The notes below the pieces were generated by a model that had not been told where the DNA came from, searched no databases, and was given only the letters and a program-made list of their open reading frames with translations. DNA of 64,000 nt. It comes from Clostridiales bacterium. Lineage in GTDB: Bacteria > Bacillota > Clostridia > TANB77 > CAG-508. How positions within the stretch are numbered: position 1 is the first letter of the stretch; each line of letters opens with the position of its first letter. Both the position numbers and the translations under genes were made by a program. The stretch lies in assembly GCA_003507395.1 (NCBI GenBank), contig DNVW01000012.1, positions 68,285 to 132,284 on the forward strand, read 5' to 3'. Below are positions 15,725-16,506 of this stretch, in pieces.

Positions 15725-16459
15725 ATGGAAAGTAAACTTGCTAAAATACATTCTTTTGAAACTTTTGGAACAGTTGATGGACCTGGAATAAGGTTTGTAA
15801 TTTTTATGCAAGGATGCTCTTTAAAGTGTAAGTATTGTCAAAACAGGGACACGTGGATGTTAGACGCTGGTAAACAGTACTCTGTTGATGAACTTTTAGC
15901 GAAAATTGGAAGATATAAGAATTATTTTATTCCTTCTGGTGGAGGAGTTACTGTTAGTGGTGGAGAGCCTTTATTGCAAATGGACTTTTTAATAGAACTT
16001 TTTACTAGGTTAAAAAGGCAAAATATTAATACTGCAATAGATACTTCTGGCTCTTTTCCTCTTACAGATAAATTAAAAACACTGATTAATTTAACAGATT
16101 TATTTCTATTAGATATAAAATGTATCAATGATGAAATCTGTAAAGATTTAACAGGTGTTTCTAATAAGTTAGAACTAGATTTTGCTAAATATCTAAGCAC
16201 AATTGGTAAAGATATGTGGATTAGACAAGTTTTAGTTCCTGGATATACTGATAAAGAAGAAGATTTATTAAATTTAAAGAAATTTTTATCTAGCTTAAAA
16301 ACAGTTAAAAAATTAGAAATTTTGCCATATCATGATATGGGCAAATACAAGTGGGAAAATCTAGGTTGCAAATACGAATTAGAAGGTGTACGTTTAGCAA
16401 CACAACAAGATGTAGCAAGAGCTAAAGATATTTTAGGTTCAATTGGGGACTGTCCCTAA
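15725..16459 (+). CDS. pflA: pyruvate formate-lyase activating enzyme (radical SAM)
   Basis: CxxxCxxC motif (CSLKCKYCQN) plus the GGEP motif. Start was moved to the ATG at 15725, which has a GGAG 8 nt upstream. The stop codon lies inside the repeat. Confidence 0.9.
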   Translation: MESKLAKIHSFETFGTVDGPGIRFVIFMQGCSLKCKYCQNRDTWMLDAGKQYSVDELLAKIGRYKNYFIPSGGGVTVSGGEPLLQMDFLIELFTRLKRQNINTAIDTSGSFPLTDKLKTLINLTDLFLLDIKCINDEICKDLTGVSNKLELDFAKYLSTIGKDMWIRQVLVPGYTDKEEDLLNLKKFLSSLKTVKKLEILPYHDMGKYKWENLGCKYELEGVRLATQQDVARAKDILGSIGDCP

Positions 16460-16506
16460 TTGGGCAAATAGGACAATTGGGGACTGTCCCCAATTGTCCT
16501 ATTTTT
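16441..16506. repeat. GC-rich palindromic intergenic repeat (two tandem GGGGACTGTCCC cores)
   Basis: The sequence is CAATTGGGGACTGTCCCTAATTG..GGACAATTGGGGACTGTCCCCAATTGTCC. It contains the pflA stop (16457-59) and the dtd stop (16499-501). Confidence 0.8.

Follow-up and report, generated by a model that had tools for sequence, protein, structure and literature searches.

Several genes in a 64,000-nucleotide stretch of Clostridiales bacterium DNA (GenBank assembly GCA_003507395.1, contig DNVW01000012.1, positions 68,285 to 132,284; hereafter the window) end inside, or directly against, copies of a small palindromic repeat. This raises the question of what kind of element the repeat is, and what it does to the genes whose ends it touches. 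A sequence-only reading of the window had placed the stop codons of at least seven genes in or against repeat copies. All seven were confirmed at their coordinates, and an eighth was added, that of pyrG (TTA 41458-60), which lies at the opposite end of the 41412-60 copy. We propose, with a probability of roughly 0.7, that the repeats are non-autonomous hairpin elements resembling repetitive extragenic palindromes (REPs) and REPINs, and that they are of the terminal inverted repeat (TIR) type that accompanies TIRYT genes. The latter encode transposases of the Y1/HUH class, also known as Group 1 of the REP-associated tyrosine transposases (RAYTs) or as subclass 2.1.

Seven repeat loci belonging to two related families (A1 to A4 and B1 to B3) were counted in the window. 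They are given here without strand, together with the two open reading frames (ORFs) that converge on the first of them:

16441..16499, unstranded: A1, tandem palindromic units CAATTGGGGACTGTCCCTAATTG and GGACAATTGGGGACTGTCCCCAATTGTCC, filling the 39-nt convergent gap between pflA and dtd
15707-16459, plus strand: pflA ORF, stop TAA at 16457-59, within the stem of the first A1 hairpin
16499-16936, minus strand: dtd ORF, stop at 16499-501 (CTA; TAG on the minus strand), with one base common to the A1 end ...CAATTGTCC
17026..17080, unstranded: A2, inverted doublet TAGGGGTGTCCCAAATTG ... GGACAATTGGGGACTGTCCCTAATTGTCC between the divergent dtd and asnS genes, in their promoter region and away from any stop codon
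38918..38974, unstranded: A3, 57 nt in the divergent region between yabG and an ABC-ATPase gene, an insertion relative to the empty site of locus L134
41412..41460, unstranded: A4, REPIN-like inverted doublet in the convergent gap between the ABC-2 permease gene and pyrG
3019..3097, unstranded: B1, family B copy downstream of the gene for a 2642-aa giant protein
44148..44223, unstranded: B2, family B copy in the gap between the stops of the rluA-like and DUF4363 genes
52523..52649, unstranded: B3, palindrome of 127 nt, nearly perfect, lying between the stop of DUF212 and the ribosome binding site and start of fhs (52506)

Family A consists of the core GGGGACWGTCCCC with AATTG-type flanks, while family B is built of TGTCACAA..GGGGACGTTCC..TTGTGACA modules. 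With up to one mismatch allowed, GGGACTGTCCC has 11 matches in the window against 0.06 expected, and the family B 21-mer has four against none expected. Three loci (A2, A4 and B3) are inverted doublets, and the overall density in this window is approximately one locus per 9 kb. All seven are intergenic or overlap last codons only. The neighbouring genes were identified by Pfam as those of a radical-SAM PflA, Dtd, an ABC-2 permease, an RluA-type pseudouridine synthase, DUF4363, DUF212, Fhs, PyrG and YabG, and a search of the whole window against Rfam at the gathering threshold returned no match. The earlier description of a dispersed, mobile-looking palindromic repeat is borne out by these seven loci and by the empty site corresponding to A3.

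Five of the loci (A1, A4, B1, B2 and B3) lie at gene 3' ends, where between them they touch the eight stops, and three (A1, A4 and B2) fill a convergent gap from one stop to the other. As had been proposed, the convergent pflA and dtd genes both end at a single element, the first stop lying within A1 and the second sharing one base with it, in a 66-nt stretch (16441-16506) made up of the two tandem units. The permease stop (TAG 41412-14) forms the first three bases of A4 (TAGGGACAGTCCCC), the rluA-like stop (TAG 44148-50) lies within TAGGGACATACC, and the DUF4363 stop (CTA 44224-26) follows immediately on the repeat end ...GTGACA. The giant gene has both its stop (TTA 3085-87) and its last three codons (3088-96) within B1 (...CCTTAAGTGACAAT), and the DUF212 stop (TTA 52648-50) overlaps the final two bases of the right arm of B3, which sits inside the co-directional gene pair DUF212-fhs.

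The sequence of the elements themselves bears on this arrangement. Their ends read TAG or TAA (TAGGGG..., ...CCCTAA), and a TAG precedes the GGG of an element end even where there is no gene end, as in TTTTAGGGGTG of A2 and TGATAGGGGTG of A3. The common low-GC variant CCCTAATTG/CAATTAGGG has TAA or TAG in one frame, and all frames of the perfect CCCCAATTG unit are free of stop codons. Element ends can thus supply a stop codon to a flanking gene, a property already described for REPs, whose termini often give a TAG stop to flanking ORFs and some of which lie wholly within ORFs (Di Nocera et al., 2013; PMC3733652). The suggestion that the repeat inserts at, or supplies, gene 3' termini therefore holds as far as the TAG and TAA ends are concerned, but it does not extend to A2 and A3 (two of the seven loci), which lie between divergent genes, in promoter regions far from any stop, and speak against a universal link with stops.

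The nearness to stops was quantified in a set comprising the window and 29 low-GC Clostridia loci (42 cores, ORFs of at least 100 aa), with all equally non-coding 13-mers as the null. Within 12 nt of an ORF stop lay 18 of the 42 cores (43%, compared with 12% under the null; binomial p about 6e-7), and eight (19%, compared with 5.5%; p = 0.002) overlapped the stop itself, figures that are to be read with the ORF-only gene calls, the choice of loci by the repeat pattern and the presence of a few near-duplicate loci in mind. In the same set, cores were also enriched approximately 25 nt upstream of start codons.

The assignment to a transposase comes from the genomes of other bacteria. A scan for the pattern CAATTGGGGACWGTCCC, with one genome per species, yielded at least 120 loci, and when the ORFs of 120 pattern-selected loci were clustered, the second-largest family was a protein of ∼250 aa found at nine of them, in five phyla. 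At seven of these nine loci the gene for this protein has a palindrome copy no more than ∼220 nt away, on one or both sides. The proteins match Pfam PF01797 (Y1_Tnp, IS200-like) with E-values of 1e-7 to 1e-13, and their best NCBIfam match is NF047646, the REP-associated tyrosine transposase, at a score below the equivalog/family cut-off. They extend ∼100 aa beyond the Y1 domain at the C-terminus, with a weak helix-turn-helix (HTH) match in one of five proteins scanned, and carry in succession the motifs NHVH/NHAH/NHIH, GH(L/V)FQ and YIH(K/N/Y/Q)NP. No other recurrent transposase, and no DDE parent, was found among the clustered ORFs of the 120 loci. The signatures of subclass 2.1 are a HuH motif NHVH or NH[YF]H, FQ or W[EQ], and a Y motif YIELNP or Y[IV]HLNP (Quentin et al., 2018; PMC6006769). 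The length, FQ motif and C-terminal extension of the ∼250-aa proteins fit this subclass, while their Y motif looks more like that of 2.2 or 2.6, in a comparison of length, motifs and domain extent.

According to Quentin et al. (2018; PMC6006769), subclass 2.1 of TnpA-Y1, whose members carry a C-terminal HTH and have a median length of 238 aa, is equivalent to TIRYT and to the Group 1 of Bertels. In a TIRtron, as described by Di Nocera et al. (2013; PMC3733652), inverted repeats that share the sequence GGGGWSAS flank the tyrosine transposase gene, in some cases overlapping its 3' end, and certain TIR families occur dispersed, whether as monomers, dimers or clusters. Group 1 RAYTs have the widest distribution of all, Clostridia included, and their flanking 16-mers are moderately repeated (Bertels et al., 2017; PMC5581495). 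The repeats studied here agree with this system in the ∼250-aa Y1/HUH protein of other genomes with its C-terminal extension, in the inverted GGGGWSAS repeats, in the overlap of some flanking repeats with a gene 3' end, in their dispersal as monomers, dimers and clusters, and in a wide, patchy distribution across phyla that includes Clostridia. On one strand, each GGGGACWGTCCCC core has the sequence GGGGACAG, in agreement with GGGGWSAS, as is the GGGGACAC contained in B3. They differ in that the core in the window is a perfect 13-nt dyad, resembling two fused TIR tips, and in their abundance, with about one locus per 9 kb here as opposed to ∼12 copies per replicon for the Group 1-associated 16-mers.

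A TIRYT gene of Clostridiaceae provides a close parallel:

L117:4812-5561; L141 and L143:3001-3750; L138:3001-3753: single-copy Clostridiaceae TIRYT gene

It is syntenic, directly upstream of ppdK, and is flanked by GAGATTTTTGGGACGCACCCGAAAATCTC hairpins with a GGGAC core, which resemble the asymmetric units GGGGTGTCCC, GGGGACAACCC and GGGGACACCC of the window. The TGA stop of the gene itself lies in the downstream hairpin. A single-copy, syntenic gene of this kind fits the vertical inheritance of a domesticated transposase. In L141-L143 the gene upstream is glyS, and the species concerned share 62-99% protein identity.

More widely, the core is shared by Bacillota, Actinomycetota, Bacteroidota and Verrucomicrobiota, in taxa that include Lachnospiraceae, Clostridia, Eubacterium, Bacteroidaceae, Prevotellaceae, Eggerthellaceae, Gordonibacter, Atopobiaceae, Olsenella, Actinomyces and Verrucomicrobiae, and multi-copy forms are also present in Planctomycetota, Acidobacteriota, Burkholderiales and Myxococcota. 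Many copies in other genomes are inverted doublets. The 13-nt core GGGGACWGTCCCC is constant and the outer stems are lineage-specific (GATAC/GTATC, TGTCA/TGACA, GTGC/GCAC, ATGTCC/GGACAT). At 12 nt from the centre, 34 of 147 distinct copies have the pair AT, 26 GC, 23 TA and 20 CG, a variety that indicates covariation preserving the hairpin. Single matches in odd phyla could have arisen by chance, as ∼140 chance 17-mer hits were estimated in the 596 Gb scanned; this explanation was set aside, since most loci show second copies or full 23-nt palindromes. A literature search for the core as a sequence string returned unrelated eukaryotic primers and sites only.

Some copies lie within coding sequence. 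The palindrome stands in frame in a two-domain U32 peptidase gene, in the homologous inter-domain linker, in two phyla:

L054:4075-4087; L038:4484-4506; L087:4679-4701; L014:5607-5699: palindrome sites in U32 peptidase genes

The linker peptides read ...NLGQSPIGTV... in a Clostridia metagenome-assembled genome and ...LSIGDSPQLTD... in Atopobiaceae and in Olsenella uli. BLASTP pairs these palindrome-encoded peptides with one another, though the proteins are only 27% identical. The gene is present in 5 of the 120 pattern-selected loci.

Comparison with related species suggests that the repeats have moved. In L134, whose permease is 76% identical, the A3 site is empty and reads GTGTTAAT joined directly to TTAATAAATTC, so that the window carries 57 extra nucleotides. 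Both flanks are present once in the empty site and no target-site duplication was found at A3, as expected for Y1 transposition and unlike a miniature inverted-repeat transposable element (MITE) of the DDE type. The sister species UBA8271 (L093, ∼85% nucleotide identity) has a single short unit at the rluA/DUF4363 junction, 54 nt less than B2. In L001 (PflA 87% identical) the pflA end is free of the repeat, and an ordinary hairpin there overlaps both stops, which are 7 nt apart; an A2-type repeat was likewise not seen in the homologous region of L001. In L135 the permease gene is followed by a canonical terminator, and a family A doublet supplies the pyrG stop, with CTTAATTAGGG encoding the last two residues (...LN*). 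The convergent permease/pyrG gap of L134 is taken up, from one stop to the other, by a palindrome of 112 nt that is not the one in the window (L134:4462-4573; AATTAAGGGGCAGTTCCAAATT...AATTGGAACTGCTCCTTAATT), so the same site is held by different hairpin elements in different species.

A1 is kept in ten strains of the host species, with variation confined to the loop base (T/A) and one linker base. In the nearest species without A1 (L001:6717-10040), mnmA and aspS lie between pflA and dtd, and the exact A1 empty site was not obtained. Both genes are absent from the window, where tblastn matched asnS only, and A1 stands exactly at the new pflA/dtd junction, which may therefore be a repeat-associated rearrangement.

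A Y1 transposase that is single-copy and inherited vertically is believed to move classical REPs in trans, without target duplication. The repeats of the window resemble the classical REPs and REPINs of E. coli and Pseudomonas (GTAG REPs) in being short extragenic hairpins, often inverted doublets, that are concentrated at gene 3' ends and can give TAG stops to genes, and in that copies of the same core lie inside ORFs in other genomes. They differ in their core, in the transposase subclass and in their hosts, which belong to the Firmicutes and to many other phyla, those of the classical REPs being mainly Proteobacteria. Moreover, the GT[AG]G tag at the hairpin foot is missing, none of the seven loci containing GTAG, GTGG or the complement of either. 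The CGTC-tagged REP family was considered because family B contains ACGTCC, and was rejected, since the CGTC here is internal, not terminal, and CGTC-tagged REPs are described as lacking a transposase (PMC3733652).

A mechanism can be proposed on this basis. A single-copy Y1 transposase encoded elsewhere in the genome would recognise the GGGGACWGTCCCC hairpin on single-stranded DNA, the unit GGACAATTGGGGACWGTCCCCAATTGTCC being the candidate single-stranded TIRYT substrate, and would cut and re-insert units without target duplication. Purifying selection would then act on the inserted copies, given how little intergenic space there is: in a compact, AT-rich genome, copies would survive only in the spare bases after stops, between co-directional genes and in promoter gaps. 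A copy that landed on a stop or within the last few codons would restore a stop at once and would hence be tolerated. Since element ends read TAG or TAA, this could account for the exact coincidence of stops with element ends and for the shortness of the tails that are rewritten, in PflA and the giant protein.

Several observations weigh against this interpretation. A tblastn search with nine TIRYT proteins found no Y1 gene in the 64-kb window, and the host's own Y1 copy was not found elsewhere either, as a homologue search starting from the Clostridiaceae TIRYT, with five contigs examined, gave only the TIRtrons of other species and a metagenome scan for the host transposase gave only relatives of at most 55% identity. 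The transposase link therefore rests on other genomes. The strict GGGGWSAS motif occurs at the gene ends of approximately nine of 36 distant TIRYT homologues and is thus not universal, and Quentin et al. (2018; PMC6006769) saw no REP-like sequences beside the genes of subclass 2.1. Furthermore, A1 is fixed within the species in the ten strains, so that mobility is inferred from one empty site and from length differences between species. Finally, convergent gaps are tiny in this lineage (7 nt in L001), and the nearness of the repeats to stops could for that reason be purely passive. On the matter of assembly, all ten contigs carrying the TIRYT P0305 are shorter than 2 kb (L224-L226), and two of them (L225 and L226) start at its upstream flanking inverted repeat TGATTTGGGGACGGAGC...; assemblies may break at such flanking repeats.

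The strongest of the alternatives is that the repeats are immobile regulatory hairpins evolved by the host, such as bidirectional terminators, mRNA-stabilising stem-loops or stall sites, and placed where they act. In E. coli, REPs lying up to ∼15 nt from a stop are reported to make ribosomes stall and to lead to tmRNA tagging. Very stable RNA folds were calculated for A1 (-44.9 kcal/mol, z = -10) and B3 (-89.4 kcal/mol, z = -14.6), with values of -31.8 to -33.4 kcal/mol for A4 and -31.5 to -40.6 kcal/mol for B2, while B1 (z = -2.1) and A3 (z = -1.4) fold weakly. U-rich tracts follow A1 (TATTTTT) and A4 (TTATTTTTT) on the plus strand, B2 and B3 being without them, and ordinary terminators or hairpins occupy the same gene ends in two relatives (pflA/mnmA in L001 and the permease in L135). 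These features, with the enrichment of cores near stops and the fixation of A1 in the species, would suit a regulatory origin. However, two of the seven copies are in promoter regions with no gene end nearby; close species differ in the presence of the repeats; and an identical 13-nt core flanking a transposase family across phyla would not be expected from local evolution. As an account of where the repeats come from, we consider this unlikely, although it overlaps with our proposal of TIRYT-associated elements, because co-option after insertion belongs to the latter. Once inserted, the very stable hairpins could plausibly serve as 3'-end mRNA stabilisers or terminators, a putative role in which they would plausibly replace the ordinary terminator hairpins seen in the two related species. 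A consensus terminator scan lent this role little weight, flagging a single hairpin, A4 on the minus strand.

A second alternative, which we judge less probable again, is that the copies are double-stranded DNA sites for a dimeric protein, such as a TIRYT-like HTH domain or a nucleoid or regulatory factor, scattered between genes. The 13-bp core is perfectly dyad-symmetric and invariant amid variable flanks, as a duplex site might be, and the ∼100-aa C-terminal extension, HTH-like in subclass 2.1 (PMC6006769) and with the weak HTH match noted above, could provide the binding domain. But the covariation of the outer stem to 12-15 nt favours pairing within a strand, and Quentin et al. (2018; PMC6006769) remark that the subclass 2.1 HTH mismatches DnaA-box specificity and might be unable to recognise the repeats.

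The sequence-only reading had likened the repeat to the Correia elements of Neisseria and the RPEs of Rickettsia. Correia elements have 26-bp TIRs, a TA duplication and a length of 100-155 bp, while RPEs are in-frame insertions of 100-150 bp, and neither is tied to a Y1 transposase. The likeness holds for behaviour, in that these too are small palindromes able to border on or invade coding sequence, altering protein ends or adding peptides, but not for family, given that the core of the window repeat flanks Y1/HUH genes in other genomes, that no target duplication was seen at the one empty site and that no DDE parent was found. A classical MITE descended from an insertion sequence with a DDE transposase and inserting at TA-rich targets such as stops is thus very improbable: terminal inverted symmetry, small size, many dispersed copies, TA(G/A) ends resembling TA targets and in-frame translation in some genes speak for it, but the A3 empty site shows no duplication of TA or any other target, the recurrent neighbour among the 120 loci is a Y1/HUH protein and not a DDE parent, and the units are hairpins of 25-30 nt, as monomers and doublets, rather than 100-150 bp with 26-bp TIRs.

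If the repeats are TIRYT-associated elements, how far do they remodel the proteins whose genes they enter? The clearest case is PflA. The last codons of its gene (TCA ATT GGG GAC TGT CCC) are repeat sequence, as the sequence-only reading had said of the terminal residues IGDCP. In the window and its own species the protein ends ...ILGSIGDC/SP, whereas most of 120 homologues end ...ILGI, ...ILA, ...ILNI or similarly, and a minority have other variable tails. By this comparison PflA has gained approximately five to six repeat-encoded residues, (S)IGDCP. The A1 loop base (window 16452) is T or A among L124-L133 and L003, making the penultimate PflA residue Cys or Ser, which suggests that the tail is not under constraint.

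Most of the other proteins seem to have been left intact. The permease C-terminus ...FKKRNIKNI/V is kept in the 43 full-length orthologues inspected, down to ∼50% identity, the sole change being that of the stop from TAA to the element's TAG. Dtd ends ...IILEK as against ...IIMEK in the repeat-free relative L001, and its Pfam profile is matched through the last position. From the profile end to the protein end there is one residue in DUF4363, four in DUF212 and five in PyrG, the tail of which differs among species after ...LIK. Judged from these alignments, the permease, Dtd and DUF4363 keep native C-termini, and those of DUF212 and PyrG look native. RluA ends ...ISL* in the window and ...VSLLDRT* in L093, both ends lying within the hairpin stem.

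The giant protein is of the same length as its homologues and ends ...AYDYFIVT, as compared with ...AYEY[IFV][IV]I[KQRN]. Its last codons (ATT GTC ACT) are within the repeat, so that at most two to three terminal residues are substituted, with no extension. This 2642-aa protein (window 3085-11013, minus strand) has internal repeats (families D1, D3 and D5 at 5600-7400) and many homologues of 2500-3300 aa, which share a conserved C-terminal region of ∼400 aa ending ...GEAYEYIIIK.

C-terminal remodelling had been put forward as a general consequence of the repeat. It applies to PflA and to two or three residues of the giant protein, and not to the permease, Dtd or DUF4363, nor, by appearance, to DUF212 or PyrG; the comparison with orthologues that had been suggested as a check gave a replaced tail for PflA and native ends for the permease and Dtd. 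Remodelling is therefore minor, with the tail changed in only one or two proteins, and the biological consequence for the proteins of this window is small. For annotation, odd short tails such as ...IGDCP and ...IGDSP, and ORFs that read through GGGGACWGTCCCC, can be taken as repeat-derived.

One further structure in the window is unrelated to the GGGAC repeats. It is an AT-rich inverted repeat (45309-45416) with 50-nt arms that are 78% complementary and 8 nt apart, between an ORF ending at 45287 and one starting at 45444.

A broader proposal, which we put forward tentatively and regard as possible rather than probable, is that GGGGACWGTCCCC hairpins belong to a single, pan-bacterial superfamily of REPs that Group 1 RAYTs (TIRYTs) serve. 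The 13-nt core would be the recognition site and the covarying stems would mark lineage-specific populations, which would have been co-opted repeatedly as stop-codon and 3'-hairpin modules and even as in-frame linker peptides of U32 peptidases.

The interest of these repeats lies in the 13-nt core conserved across phyla and in their link to a RAYT group that had been surveyed as free of REPs. If the link holds, they would provide a concrete and abundant example, from a gut Clostridia species, of the RAYT group that is least understood at work, now or in the past, on dispersed repeats, where one survey had reported Group 1 RAYTs without REP-like repeats (Quentin et al., 2018). They also show how repeats can coexist with tightly packed genes, by bringing their own stop codons and by apparently taking the place of ordinary terminators at convergent gene ends.

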